UHGV virus genome: UHGV-0186667
Direction: 5' to 3' (one strand)
Length of the DNA stretch: 32,635 nt
DNA from: a virus
Shown: piece after piece, positions 3,255 to 19,648 of the stretch
Position numbering within the stretch: the stretch's first letter is position 1
Layout: the number at the start of each line of letters is the position of its first letter
Notes under the pieces: generated by a model
Seen by the model: the letters and a program-made list of their open reading frames with translations, nothing else
What the model was told of the DNA's origin: nothing
The model's database searches: none
Translations under genes and position numbers: made by a program

Positions 3255-3321
3255 CCAACTAATGAAATTAATGGCGTAAACCCGCCAGGCATCCCTTTAT
3301 CTAAATTCAGGAGAATTGATT

Positions 3322-3555
3322 ATGCGTAATATTGAAACCCTCACGACCAAAACCGGACCGGATGACGCAGGGCTTAATATTTTACTGACAGAGGCTCGTC
3401 TGGAAGAACGCCGGGCAAGGGCTGAAGCAATGGCAGCTCGCCTTGATAGCCTGGCGTGTCATATCACATCCCGCCAGCTAAACCACGTCGAAGCGGCAGA
3501 ACTGCTTCGTGTGACTGCTGAAGCAATCCAGAACGAAGCGCAGGAGATCCACTAA
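3322..3555 (+). CDS. Hypothetical early protein
   Basis: ATG at 3322 lies 8 nt after AGGAG (3309-3313); the ORF track begins at an upstream TTG (3316). Confidence 0.45.
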   Translation: MRNIETLTTKTGPDDAGLNILLTEARLEERRARAEAMAARLDSLACHITSRQLNHVEAAELLRVTAEAIQNEAQEIH

Positions 3556-16498: not shown

Positions 16499-16963
16499 AT
16501 GAAGTTTGTTGCGCCAGAACAGGCACCGGAACAGGCGGAAATCATCAGGAATACGCCGTTCTGGCCTGATGTGGACCTGTCGGAGTTTCGCAGTGTGATG
16601 CGCACTGACGGCACGGTGACGCAGCCGCGTTTAAAACAGGTTGCCCTGTCGGCAATTTCGGAGGTCAACGCAGAGCTGTATGAGTTTCGCAGACGCCAGC
16701 AGATGCTGGGGTATGCCTCGCTGGCAGAAGTCCCGGCGGAACAACTGGACGGCAAAAGCGAGCGCATTCAGCACTATTTCAACGCGGTTTACTGCTGGGC
16801 ACGCGCCATGCTCAACGAACGTTACCAGGACTATGACGCCACGGCATCCGGTGCGAAGCGAGGCGAGGAACTGGCGGAAGCAAGCGGTGATTTATGGCGT
16901 GACGCCCGCTGGGCCATCAGCCGGGTGCAGGATGCGCCGCACTGCACAGTGGAGCTTATCTGA
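16499..16963 (+). CDS. L: Head completion protein (P2 gpL)
   Basis: Start moved to ATG 16499, which has AGGAG 8-9 nt upstream; the ORF track begins at an upstream in-frame codon (16436). Confidence 0.7.
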   Translation: MKFVAPEQAPEQAEIIRNTPFWPDVDLSEFRSVMRTDGTVTQPRLKQVALSAISEVNAELYEFRRRQQMLGYASLAEVPAEQLDGKSERIQHYFNAVYCWARAMLNERYQDYDATASGAKRGEELAEASGDLWRDARWAISRVQDAPHCTVELI

Positions 16964-17166
16964 TGAAAGTGCGTGCGCATCAGTATGACACGGTGGACGC
17001 ACTTTGCTGGCGTCATTACGGGCGCACGCAGGGTGTCACGGAGCAGGTACTGAAGGCAAATCCGGGGCTTGCCGAATACGGCCCCTTTTTACCTCACGGG
17101 CTGCAGGTGGAGCTGCCGGACATTCCGACAACCACCACCGTGCAGACCGTCCAGCTATGGGACTGA
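16963..17166 (+). CDS. X: Tail protein X
   Basis: 67 aa, same size and position as P2 gpX. Confidence 0.7.
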   Translation: MKVRAHQYDTVDALCWRHYGRTQGVTEQVLKANPGLAEYGPFLPHGLQVELPDIPTTTTVQTVQLWD

Positions 17167-17169
17167 ATT

Positions 17170-17385
17170 ATGACGCTTGAGCGAATCAGCGCCTTTATCA
17201 CGTATTGCATCGCCGTCGTGCTGGCCTGGCTGGGCGATTTGTCCATCAAGGATGCCTCAACGCTGGGCGGCCTGATGATCGGTGTGCTGATGCTGGCTAT
17301 CAACTGGTACTACAAACACAAAGCCTACCAGCTTCTGCGCGACGGGCAGATCTCGCGGGAGGACTATGAATCCATCAATCGTTAA
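17170..17385 (+). CDS. Putative holin (pinholin-like, two TM segments)
   Basis: 71 aa with two hydrophobic segments and a charged C-terminus, directly upstream of a SAR-type endolysin. Confidence 0.55.
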   Translation: MTLERISAFITYCIAVVLAWLGDLSIKDASTLGGLMIGVLMLAINWYYKHKAYQLLRDGQISREDYESINR

Positions 17386-17878
17386 ACGCTGCCTTGTCGG
17401 GGCCGTGCTGGCTATTGCTGCCACGCTGCCGGGTTTTCAGCAGCTTCACACCTCCGTGGAAGGGCTGAAACTGATTGCCGATTACGAAGGTTGTCGTCTG
17501 CAGCCGTATCAGTGCAGCGCGGGTGTCTGGACCGACGGCATTGGTAATACGTCGGGCGTCATTCCCGGCAAAACCATTACGGAGCGACAGGCAGCAGAAG
17601 GGCTGATCTCCAACGTGCTGCGTGTGGAGCGGGCGCTGGAAAGGTGTGTGAAGCAACAGCCGCCGCAGAAGGTGTATGACGCTGCGGTGTCGTTTGCCTT
17701 CAACGTGGGTACGGGCAATGCCTGCAGTTCCACGCTGGTGAAATTGCTCAATCAGCGGCGCTGGGCGGATGCGTGCCGACAGTTGCCGCGCTGGGTGTAT
17801 GTAAAAGGTGTGTTTAATCAGGGGCTGGATAACCGCCGTGCGCGGGAGATGGCCTGGTGCTTACAGGGAGCAAACTGA
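17366..17878 (+). CDS. Endolysin, lysozyme-like with N-terminal signal-arrest-release segment
   Basis: 170 aa. N-terminus MNPSIVKRCLVGAVLAIAATLPG is a weakly hydrophobic Gly/Ala-rich segment; the body resembles phage 21 R-type lysozymes. Confidence 0.8.
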   Translation: MNPSIVKRCLVGAVLAIAATLPGFQQLHTSVEGLKLIADYEGCRLQPYQCSAGVWTDGIGNTSGVIPGKTITERQAAEGLISNVLRVERALERCVKQQPPQKVYDAAVSFAFNVGTGNACSSTLVKLLNQRRWADACRQLPRWVYVKGVFNQGLDNRRAREMAWCLQGAN

Positions 17879-17879
17879 A

Positions 17880-18257
17880 ATGAAAAAGAAAGTAATCAGC
17901 GGGCTGTTTCTGATGTTATGGATAGCGCTGTTAATCGCCGCAATGGTGTATCCGCAGGGGATTTTTCCGGTACTGGCAGCATCTGGTGTCTGGGTAGCCT
18001 GTCTGCTGACATGGGCAGTAATTCCGGTATCACTGGCTGCGTTAATTAAGAACGGCCCGCTCTGGCAGGAGTTGAGGGCATCTTTGCTGAAGACAATTAC
18101 CCGAAAAGAAAACGTATTTATCAGCTGGATGATGCGATTGCTGATTGTCGTAAGTTTCGCCTGGACGGGGTGGGCTATTACCCTGGTCTTTTATCTGCTG
18201 ACCGTTATTGCCTTCTGGATGATCCGTAATCAGATTGCGCAACAGGTAGCAGCATGA
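17880..18257 (+). CDS. LysA-like multi-pass membrane protein
   Basis: About 125 aa from ATG 17880 with four hydrophobic segments; lies between the endolysin and the spanins. Confidence 0.5.
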   Translation: MKKKVISGLFLMLWIALLIAAMVYPQGIFPVLAASGVWVACLLTWAVIPVSLAALIKNGPLWQELRASLLKTITRKENVFISWMMRLLIVVSFAWTGWAITLVFYLLTVIAFWMIRNQIAQQVAA

Positions 18258-18682
18258 ACCGGTTGCTGCTGGTTGTGTTGGCGTTATTACTGGCGGCGCT
18301 GGGCTGGCAGACGTGGCGGCTGGCTGATGCCAGCCAGACCATCAGCACGCAGGCAGACGAGCTTCGGAGCAAAAGCCAGGCACTGGCAAAGAGCAACAGC
18401 CAGCTTATCAGCCTGTCCATTCTGACTGAAACCAATAACCGGGAGCAGGCGCGGCTCTATGCCGAAGCAGAACAGACCAGTGTACTGCTGAGACAACGAC
18501 TACACCGGATTGAGGAACTGAAACGTGAGAACGAGGATTTACGCCGCTGGGCTGATACTCCTTTGCCTGCTTACATTATCCGGCTGCGGGAACGCCCCAC
18601 ACTCACCGGAGGTGCAGCTTACCGTCAGTGGTTGTCCGCGAGTGACGCCGTGTCGGCTGGGGCAGGCAGCGCCGCGCACTAA
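18254..18682 (+). CDS. Inner-membrane spanin (LysB/Rz-like)
   Basis: 142 aa with an N-terminal TM segment and a coiled-coil-like body. Confidence 0.65.
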   Translation: MNRLLLVVLALLLAALGWQTWRLADASQTISTQADELRSKSQALAKSNSQLISLSILTETNNREQARLYAEAEQTSVLLRQRLHRIEELKRENEDLRRWADTPLPAYIIRLRERPTLTGGAAYRQWLSASDAVSAGAGSAAH

Positions 18683-18815
18683 CGGTGACCTGAACGCGTT
18701 GCTGGATGAAACGGAGGCCGCCTGGGCGGTCTGTGCAGACAAAGTGGACATGATTATTGCGTGTCAGGAGCGAAACAGTGAACAAACCACAATCCCTGCG
18801 CCACGCCCTCAATAA
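18525..18815 (+). CDS. Outer-membrane spanin lipoprotein (LysC/Rz1-like)
   Basis: 96 aa in an alternative frame overlapping the 3' part of LysB; lipobox LTLSGC near the N-terminus. Confidence 0.65.
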   Translation: MRTRIYAAGLILLCLLTLSGCGNAPHSPEVQLTVSGCPRVTPCRLGQAAPRTNGDLNALLDETEAAWAVCADKVDMIIACQERNSEQTTIPAPRPQ

Positions 18816-19209
18816 AGCGGTGCCTTATGTCCGCAATAACCCGGACAAACTGCATCTGTTTGTGGATAACGGTTCGCTGGTTGCCACGGGGGCCAGCTCC
18901 ATGTCATGGGAGTACCGCTATACCCTGAACGTGGTGATAGAGGATTTCAGCGGCGACCAGAATCTGCTGATGGCCCCGGTTTTACTGTGGCTTCGGGATA
19001 ACCAGCCCGATGCCATCAATAACCCGGCGTTACGGGAAAAGCTATTCACCTTTGAGGTGGATATTTTGCGCAACGATGTCTGTGATATCAGCCTTAACCT
19101 GCAACTGACGGAACGTGTGCTGGTCAGTACTGACGGCAGTGTGTCGAGCGTTGAAGCTGTAGCAGAACCCGATGAACCTGAAGAAATGTGGACGGTGAAA
19201 CGTGGCTGA
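18778..19209 (+). CDS. R: Tail completion protein R
   Basis: Resembles P2 gpR (KP.SLR.AL...FVDNG). No ATG is present; GTG 18778 is the likely start, while the ORF track begins at TTG 18757. Confidence 0.7.
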   Translation: MNKPQSLRHALNKAVPYVRNNPDKLHLFVDNGSLVATGASSMSWEYRYTLNVVIEDFSGDQNLLMAPVLLWLRDNQPDAINNPALREKLFTFEVDILRNDVCDISLNLQLTERVLVSTDGSVSSVEAVAEPDEPEEMWTVKRG

Positions 19210-19648
19210 ACTGCAGAAGGTGGACGACTGGCTGAGTGCCTTGCTGGCGAATCTGGAACCAGCCAAGAGAAGCAGCATGATGCGCCAGCTGGCGCAGGAA
19301 CTGCGCCGGACACAGCAGCAGAATATCAGGATGCAGCGCAATCCAGATGGCAGCAGTTATGAACCGCGCAGGGTAACAGCACGCAGCAAAAAAGGCCGCA
19401 TCAAACGTCAGATGTTTGCAAAGCTGCGCACCACAAAATACCTGAAAACTGCCGCCAGCGCCGACTCTGCCAGCGTACACTTTGAAGGCAAGGTGCAGCG
19501 TATTGCCCGTGTTCACCATTACGGCCTGCGTGATCGCGTCAGTCGCAAAGGACCGGAGGTCCGTTACGCAGAGCGCCGCCTGCTGGGTGTAAATGATGAT
19601 GTTGAGGCAATGACCCGCGACATGATTCTGCAATGGCTGGCGGGGTGA
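19202..19648 (+). CDS. S: Tail completion protein S
   Basis: 148 aa (P2 S is about 150), directly after R. Confidence 0.75.
   Translation: MAELQKVDDWLSALLANLEPAKRSSMMRQLAQELRRTQQQNIRMQRNPDGSSYEPRRVTARSKKGRIKRQMFAKLRTTKYLKTAASADSASVHFEGKVQRIARVHHYGLRDRVSRKGPEVRYAERRLLGVNDDVEAMTRDMILQWLAG

Follow-up and report, generated by a model that had tools for sequence, protein, structure and literature searches.

The window analysed in this study is a 32,635-nucleotide stretch of viral DNA (UHGV virus genome UHGV-0186667), and its positions 17170-18815 hold an ordinary and intact set of host-lysis genes, belonging to a P2-like prophage that is very common in E. coli and Klebsiella. Five intact open reading frames, all on the + strand, tightly packed and translationally coupled, lie between the tail genes X and R in the order holin, endolysin, LysA homologue, lysB (i-spanin), and lysC (o-spanin), and their products all passed the curated models PF16080, PF00959, NF038378, TIGR03495, and NF038368, along with PF23793 and the matching PHROGs. 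The ORF map, the translations, and the family models showed that the four genes described in the original prediction are all present and intact with exact coordinates, and that a fifth gene, the LysA homologue, had been overlooked. Observed properties of the cassette are the intactness of its genes, their family assignments, the conserved residues, the fold, and the architecture. The prophage is very probably of the Fels-2/Wadgaonvirus type, with the lysis module as a late-expressed part of an intact prophage. A Rfam search of positions 16500-19500 returned zero matches, the numbers of promoter-like sites (2 vs 1.5 expected in shuffled sequence) and terminator-like sites (5 vs 2.7 +/- 1.8 in shuffled sequence) were not above expectation, and no P2-style attenuator was established within lysC.

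The endolysin gene (17366-17878, + strand) shares 20 nt with the holin gene, has the ribosome-binding site GGGAGG, and encodes a GH24 muramidase of 170 aa, which matched PF00959 with an E value of 4.6e-40 and P1 Lyz (1XJT, E 2e-26) as its best PDB match by sequence. The N-terminus reads MNPSIVKR-CLVGAVLAIAATL-PGF, in which the putative SAR segment C9-L21 (17390-17428, + strand) stands between K7-R8 and P22 and contains Cys9; a lipobox is absent from it. By the composition proxy used here, the segment has only 13 apolar residues and G/A/S/T account for 6 to 7 of 15 to 17 positions, in agreement with the Gly/Ala-rich and weakly hydrophobic endolysin N-terminus that had been proposed. Alignment to P1 Lyz placed the catalytic and caging motif E41-G-C43-x6-C50-x5-T56 at 17486-17533 (+ strand), where E41, C43, C50, and T56 correspond residue for residue to E42, C44, C51, and T57 of P1 Lyz. 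Across 26 homologues, the most distant at 35% identity, Cys9, E41, C50, and T56 did not vary, C43 was at least 90% conserved, and the N-terminus outside Cys9 diverged. A cysteine was found in 15 of the 17 non-redundant N-terminal hydrophobic segments, the 2 exceptions resembling truncated start calls, and the soluble homologues that carry no N-terminal segment had, bar one or two, no N-terminal cysteine in this tally. The three-cysteine layout, with C9 in the SAR segment, C43 at Glu+2, and the catalytic C50, is present, and Cys9 is the candidate for the activating thiol; Cys9 and P1 Cys13 fall in different alignment columns. The C43/C50 pair is also found in many soluble homologues, so that the pair alone is no proof of caging.

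The AF2 model of the endolysin (pLDDT 93.4) has residues 11-26 folded onto the body of the protein. When the model was searched with Foldseek, the top match was 1XJT, the active full-length P1 Lyz, with a TMq of 0.85 over 173 columns in comparison to 0.58 for the inactive P1 Lyz (1XJU), and the top four PDB matches were made up of three full-length SAR endolysins, namely 1XJT, 4ZPU, and 3HDE (two chains). The sequence, the conserved cysteines, and the predicted fold give good support for placing the protein among the SAR endolysins of the P1 Lyz type. Among SAR endolysins P1 Lyz is the prototype, and its activation proceeds through isomerisation of a disulfide (Xu et al. 2005, as cited in PMC9025707). 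It shares with the window endolysin the GH24 fold, the E-x-C-x6-C-x5-T motif, and a cysteine in the releasable N-terminal segment, and it is the best PDB match by both sequence and structure, although the identity is only about 35%. The two differ in that the SAR cysteine of the window endolysin lies at the cytoplasmic edge (position 9, directly after K-R) and that of P1 Lyz at position 13, in that the apolar stretch is shorter in the window endolysin, and in that its gene belongs to a P2-type cassette while that of P1 belongs to the lyz operon.

The holin gene (17170-17385, + strand) encodes a class II holin of 71 aa with two hydrophobic segments by hydropathy (residues 6-22 and 29-45) and a charged C-terminal tail, KHKAYQLLRDGQISREDYESINR, and thus bears out the 71-aa two-TM holin expected upstream of the endolysin. 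It scored 36.7 bits against PF16080, the HP1 holin family (gathering cut-off 28.8, model positions 3-54 of 56), its homologues are named 'HP1 family phage holin' at NCBI, and by sequence it is a member of this family. It was also assigned to phrog_20 with an E value of 1.9e-26.

The LysA homologue (17880-18257, + strand) is a protein of 125 aa, encoded between the endolysin and lysB, with four hydrophobic segments by hydropathy that we take as TM segments. Its score against NF038378 (cut-off 40) was 125.7 bits in comparison to 120.9 for P2 LysA and 144.5 for the EtG homologue, and both it and P2 LysA belong to phrog_162. By analogy with P2, it is probably a lysis-timing regulator.

The lysA stop overlaps the lysB start (ATGA), and lysB (18254-18682, + strand) encodes an i-spanin of 142 aa with a TM segment at residues 4-20 followed by a periplasmic helical domain. 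LysB scored 167.8 bits against TIGR03495 phage_LysB (cut-off 92.75), belongs to phrog_89, and is 33% identical to P2 LysB in the C-terminal half. The lysC gene (18525-18815, + strand), whose GTG start is preceded by GAGGA, encodes the o-spanin lipoprotein of 96 aa, which matched PF23793, scored 124.8 bits against NF038368 P2_Rz1 (cut-off 27), and, aligned over its full length, shares 45% identity and the start MRT.I.AAG with P2 LysC. A lipoprotein spanin had been described that starts inside the i-spanin gene in another frame and extends past it, and this is what was found: lysC lies in the +1 frame within lysB (offset 271 nt), overlaps it by 158 nt, and ends 133 nt beyond it and 38 nt inside gene R. 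The lipobox check that had been suggested also came out in favor, as the translation reads L18-S19-G20-C21 (18576-18587, + strand) at the position of the AGC lipobox of P2 LysC; mature LysC is predicted to begin at Cys21, and the Gly at +2 fits outer-membrane sorting. Judged from the reading frames, the spanins are of the two-component, P2-type 'overlapped' architecture.

In comparison to phage P2, the five-gene order (Y-K-lysA-lysB-lysC) and the position between X and R are the same, LysA, LysB, and LysC are homologous by the NF038378 match and the identities given above, and the +1-frame lysC overlap is shared. The holin and endolysin are not only unlike Y and K, as had been claimed, but unrelated to them: the class I holin Y of P2 (PF04550, phrog_175) has three TMs and the window holin, of class II, has two, while P2 K is a soluble endolysin (phrog_90) and the window endolysin a SAR lysozyme. 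A pairwise BLAST hint of kinship between the window holin and P2 Y (E 1e-4) was rejected because hhalign gave a probability of only 1.5% and the two proteins belong to separate Pfam and PHROG families. Phage 21/DLP12, with S21 and R21 (RrrD), likewise has a small two-TM holin upstream of a SAR lysozyme, and its endolysin is 38% identical to that of the window. However, the regulation of R21 is cysteine-free, with Asp at E+9 where the window endolysin has Cys, and the spanins of phage 21 are embedded whereas those of the window are overlapped.

The same cassette, in the same gene order and with 96% to 97% DNA identity across the block, is found in Klebsiella phage KP12 (clone KP12_3, peg.316-320) as well as in Escherichia phage 500465-1, Cartapus, Klebsiella phage 4LV2017, and Fels-2/SopEPhi-type prophages, with a holin that is 100% identical, an endolysin (KP12.peg.319 in KP12) that is 98% identical, and nothing of substance that is different. 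A published account of the KP12 cassette already assigns it to the P2 type, with overlapped spanins and a SAR endolysin resembling P1 Lyz (PMC9902359). The lytic spot test in the same paper was considered as experimental support and rejected as unreliable, because the printed peg.319 primers match neither the window gene nor the KP12 record.

We consider it highly likely, by analogy with characterised phages, that the block is a P2-like prophage lysis module acting by the SAR-endolysin route. The endolysin would be exported by Sec and tethered to the inner membrane through its short and weakly anchoring SAR segment, with the muramidase domain in the periplasm and held inactive by a disulfide between the catalytic Cys50 and Cys43. 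The 71-aa class II holin would build up and, at a programmed time, dissipate the membrane potential, upon which the SAR segment would exit from the bilayer and the Cys9 thiol would attack the cage to form Cys9-Cys43 and set Cys50 free. The N-terminus would then refold onto the enzyme, leading to wall degradation, and the LysB-LysC complex would disrupt the outer membrane once the peptidoglycan barrier is gone. The four-TM LysA homologue would presumably adjust when this happens, which is the part that lysA plays in P2. For the uncleaved export, the release upon loss of the pmf, the isomerisation of the disulfide, and the role of LysA, the scheme follows P1 Lyz, phage 21, and P2.

Pinholins make nanometre-scale holes that are unable to release a soluble endolysin, and the operational test for a pinholin is co-expression with lambda R (PMC9025707). 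Whether the holin of the window belongs among them is close to an even call. The other reading, to which we give a chance somewhat under even, is that of a canonical class II holin with large holes, which would trigger the SAR endolysin because any holin depolarises the membrane; in P1, Lyz works together with LydA and LydC, which are canonical holins (PMC9025707). Several observations point in this direction, for which an S21/R21-like cassette taken from a related E. coli genome served as comparison. The window holin, a member of the HP1 and not the S21 family, scored 23.2 bits against PF04971 (P21 holin S), under the gathering cut-off of 26, and hhalign aligned it to the S21-like holin with a probability of just 19%. 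As a hydropathy proxy, the Hessa-scale sums were -0.56 for TMD1 and +1.94 for TMD2, so that the more hydrophobic segment is TMD1 and not a weak SAR-like helix, while TMD1 of the S21-like holin was not registered as a TM segment in the same hydropathy scan. The M-K-S-M dual-start motif of S21 was absent from the holin, whose only ATG start has an in-frame TGA 6 nt before it; M-G-L-[KST]-M is present in its relatives from Yersinia and Erwinia phages. On the other side, the holin is very small with two TMs, its gene lies directly upstream of and overlaps the SAR endolysin gene, which is the usual position of a pinholin gene (PMC9025707), its TMD2 has a small-residue face (G33-G34-x3-G38-x4-A43), and it shares phrog_20 with the S21-like pinholin. 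Because of this shared PHROG the holin may be kin to S21, though by sequence no more than distantly. Among the traits of a pinholin, the small class II size, the two TMs, and the charged tail were found, and PF04971 membership, a weak TMD1, and a dual start were not; of the "pinholin / SAR-endolysin" label in the original prediction, the SAR-endolysin part is well supported and the pinholin part is about as likely as not.

For the endolysin N-terminus two other readings were weighed against the SAR route. It could be a cleavable Sec signal peptide, which would yield a freely secreted lysozyme with the disulfide cage or the energised membrane as its sole restraint, and the 13-residue apolar stretch with K7-R8 before it, the helix-breaking Pro-Gly after it, and the motif A16-I-A18 are consistent with this. 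Since A16-I-A18 could serve signal peptidase, N-terminal cleavage is conceivable from sequence alone; however, the invariance of Cys9 and the strong conservation of the N-terminal sequence among homologues as distant as 35% identity, the packing of residues 11-26 on the catalytic domain in the AF2 model as in active P1 Lyz, and the uncleaved state of the nearest characterised relatives (P1 Lyz, R21, and RrrD) make this reading quite improbable. Still more improbable is a stable type II anchor, from which the enzyme would be released by proteolysis or by a dedicated factor, possibly LysA-like, in the manner of the Mu releasin gp25. The basic residues K7-R8 are adjacent at the cytoplasmic edge, and Mu gp22 requires gp25 for its release on account of two neighbouring basic residues (PMC9239132). 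The gene for the four-TM LysA homologue also lies immediately downstream. Against this, thirteen apolar residues are insufficient for a stable span, and the LysA family is found beside the soluble endolysin K in P2. R21, which is not known to need a helper for release, likewise has an adjacent R6-K7, and LysA is absent from related cassettes whose endolysins are 62% to 63% identical and retain the KRC motif; because of these two observations, a releasin-type dependence was rejected as the main reading.

There is a small chance that this very common enterobacterial clade departs in its mechanism from the pinholin/SAR paradigm, with LysA as a general timer at the level of the membrane that might act on SAR release or on the spanins. 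In such a variant the S21 route of TMD1 exit would not be open to the holin, since its TMD1 is stable and a dual start is absent, and LysA would not be a holin-specific antiholin, since its family is found both beside P2 Y/K and beside an HP1-type holin with a SAR lysozyme, pairs that are unrelated to each other, and is missing in some relatives.

The cassette is real, ordinary, and already known; about 19% of the complete genomes of E. coli carry it, and PGAP annotates it as a matter of routine. The practical value of the analysis is that it flags database errors, in that LysA is often labelled 'endolysin' and the o-spanin gene is often truncated, and it otherwise offers little beyond correct annotation. 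For the P2-like phages, the cassette is a textbook case of module exchange, in which holin and endolysin were replaced together and LysA, LysB, and LysC retained.

The window is a P2-like prophage that is almost complete, spanning integrase to gene D, in which five intact lysis genes lie on the + strand, flanked by tail gene X (16963-17166, PF05489) and the tail-completion gene R (18778-19209, GTG start, PF06891). The 71-aa holin (17170-17385, +) is followed by a 170-aa endolysin (17366-17878, +), whose gene overlaps that of the holin by 20 nt and whose ATG has GGGAGG 4 nt upstream, then by a 125-aa membrane protein (17880-18257, +), by lysB (18254-18682, +), which shares an ATGA overlap with the 125-aa gene, and by the GTG-initiated lysC (18525-18815, +), with GAGGA 7 nt upstream. 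The lysC gene starts 271 nt into lysB in the +1 frame, overlaps it by 158 nt and extends 133 nt past it, and overlaps gene R by 38 nt. The coordinates and description of the cassette in the original prediction were therefore accurate; all the genes that it described within 17170-18815 were recovered, while the 125-aa gene inside this interval had been missed.

The holin scored 36.7 bits on PF16080 (HP1 holin family, cut-off 28.8) and fell into phrog_20, and the endolysin matched PF00959 (E 4.6e-40) and phrog_7. LysB scored 167.8 bits on TIGR03495 (cut-off 92.75), and LysC 124.8 bits on NF038368 (cut-off 27) with a further match to PF23793. The 125-aa protein scored 125.7 bits on NF038378 (cut-off 40) and belongs to phrog_162; because P2 LysA matches the same two models (120.9 bits and E 1.8e-67, respectively), it is a LysA homologue. 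The PHROGs label of 'endolysin' for phrog_162 is an annotation error, and phage records propagate it to LysA homologues. In addition, the o-spanin gene is called in phage records from internal starts, giving 38 aa or 57 aa, while the correct ORF of 96 aa is GTG-initiated and matches P2 LysC. The mislabelled loci are 2481-2858 and 3300-3416 of NC_049342.1, lysA of P2 itself (NC_001895.1), and KP12_316 of the Klebsiella phage KP12 record OM835953.1.

Many database proteins of 277-296 aa (P0012, P0015, P0024) are lysozyme-LysA fusions (...REMACVYREQTEMNKK...), which arise when the endolysin frame, close to its final 6 codons, shifts to the open frame ahead of lysA (window 17850-17885), one form being found in 30 contigs. 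These look like a one-base deletion allele or a sequencing artefact rather than a designed fusion, and the window carries the intact two-gene form.

The top PDB sequence match of the endolysin was P1 Lyz (1XJT, E 2e-26), other matches being R21 of phage 21 (3HDE) and DLP12 RrrD (4ZPU), and E42/C44/C51/T57 of P1 Lyz align residue for residue with E41/C43/C50/T56 of the window protein. P1 Lyz is the prototype signal-arrest-release (SAR) endolysin, and in work by Xu et al. from 2005, cited in PMC9025707, its caging disulfide is reported to be Cys44-Cys51, which Cys13 of the SAR domain resolves once released from the membrane. The C43/C50 pair alone is not diagnostic of this type, since many soluble homologues carry it too. 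The N-terminus of the window endolysin consists of K7-R8, 13 apolar, Gly/Ala-rich residues (C9-L21) and Pro-Gly, and diverse homologues were gathered to ask whether this segment belongs to the mature functional protein or is a discarded signal peptide. A Cys near the segment start was found in 15 of the 17 non-redundant N-terminal hydrophobic segments (<60% mutual identity), and the other two look like truncated start calls; homologues starting at the catalytic domain have neither the segment nor an N-terminal Cys in the tally, with one or two exceptions. Across a 26-sequence alignment reaching down to 35% identity, C9, E41, C50, T56 and C165 are invariant and C43 and C137 at least 90% conserved, while the N-terminus outside C9 diverges. 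C165 and C137 may form a structural periplasmic disulfide.

The AlphaFold2 model (pLDDT 93.4, pTM 0.88) placed residues 11-26 as two short helices packed on the enzyme body, and its top PDB match, at TMq 0.85 over 173 aligned columns, was 1XJT, P1 Lyz in its active full-length form, followed by full-length RrrD and R21, in comparison to a TMq of only 0.58 for the inactive truncated 1XJU. The conserved Cys9 and the model are consistent with a retained, refolding SAR segment bearing the activating thiol. Cleavage of the N-terminus as a signal peptide is possible from the sequence, with the A16-I-A18 motif as a potential signal-peptidase site. As for LysA, P2 lysA is annotated as non-essential and influencing lysis timing (NC_001895.1), and its product has been called an antiholin (PMC3091744); a releasin-like role, by analogy to Mu gp25 (PMC9239132), is conceivable but unsupported, as the adjacent basic residues on which this argument draws are of the same kind in R21, and close relatives of the window endolysin occur without LysA. 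LysA family members occur alongside the P2 Y/K pair as well as the HP1-holin/SAR pair. Erwinia phage EtG has one, and Yersinia phage vB_YenM_06.16-2, Klebsiella phage RCIP0057 and a Yersinia 186-type phage have none in cassettes that are similar in other respects. The SAR assignment proposed originally is well supported by P1 Lyz as best match for both sequence and predicted structure, by the invariant Cys9 and by the short Gly/Ala-rich segment.

For the holin, the evidence on the proposed pinholin nature points both ways. Two TM segments with a charged tail, the gene position, and membership of phrog_20, which also holds the S21-like holin of an E. coli genome, agree with it. Against it, the holin scored 23.2 bits on PF04971 (P21 holin S), below the Pfam cut-off of 26, its pairwise similarity to S21 was limited to the end of TMD2, and hhalign of a 20-homologue holin profile with S21 gave only 19% probability. 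By a hydropathy proxy, TMD1 is the more hydrophobic of its two segments, whereas the first segment of the S21-like holin is not picked up as a TM segment on the same scale. Only one start codon is present, and an in-frame TGA lies 6 nt before it. More distant relatives from Yersinia, Erwinia and 186-type phages differ in having M-G-L-[K/S/T]-M N-termini, lacking in the window holin; this could be a dual-start (antiholin/holin) motif of HP1-family holins (at 2195-2416 in each of the loci L006, L007, L008 and L009), and the Lys4 version occurs in L006, a cassette without lysA. Because P1 Lyz works with the canonical holins LydA and LydC as well as the pinholin LydD, so that SAR endolysins are not bound to pinholins, and a pinholin is defined operationally as a holin with which a soluble endolysin cannot bring about lysis (PMC9025707), the label is only plausible from gene position, and we consider its chances about even.

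The 2.1-kb region was found in 33 phage records at 96-97% identity, including Escherichia phage 500465-1, Klebsiella phages KP12 and 4LV2017, and the Kp48xx series. The holin of Escherichia phage Cartapus is 100% identical, and those of SopEPhi, RE2010 and SEN8 are ~80% identical. The cassette is present in 1038 of 5426 complete E. coli genomes, where PGAP names it 'HP1 family phage holin / lysozyme / DNZ54_00345 family protein / LysB / LysC', and in one phage record a homologue already bears the name 'SAR-endolysin'. Kim et al. 2023 (PMC9902359) assigned KP12.peg.316-320 to the P2 type of cassette, with overlapped spanins and a SAR endolysin resembling P1 Lyz, and considered a pinholin partner; the KP12 endolysin is 98% identical to that of the window. 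The printed KP12.peg.319 primers (PMC9902359 methods) share the forward primer with the KP1 primers and are otherwise unrelated, and no match within 3 mismatches was found in the window endolysin gene or the KP12_3 record. The KP12 'genome', with 397 genes, T1-like and P2-like cassettes and a record classed under Vequintavirinae, looks like a mixture including an induced P2-like prophage. The cassette is real, intact, ordinary and already known.

In comparison to P2, LysC showed 45% identity over its full length and shares the N-terminal start and lipobox position, which together with the +1 start inside lysB supports the predicted overlapped spanins; LysB showed 33% identity in the C-terminal half, and LysA gave only a weak pairwise match, although both proteins belong to one curated family. 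P2 Y (PF04550, phrog_175) and K (phrog_90) are not related to the window holin and endolysin. The contrast drawn at the outset with the canonical Y/K pair was therefore correct, since, as the family comparisons indicate, the holin and endolysin have been swapped as one pair while LysA, LysB and LysC were kept.
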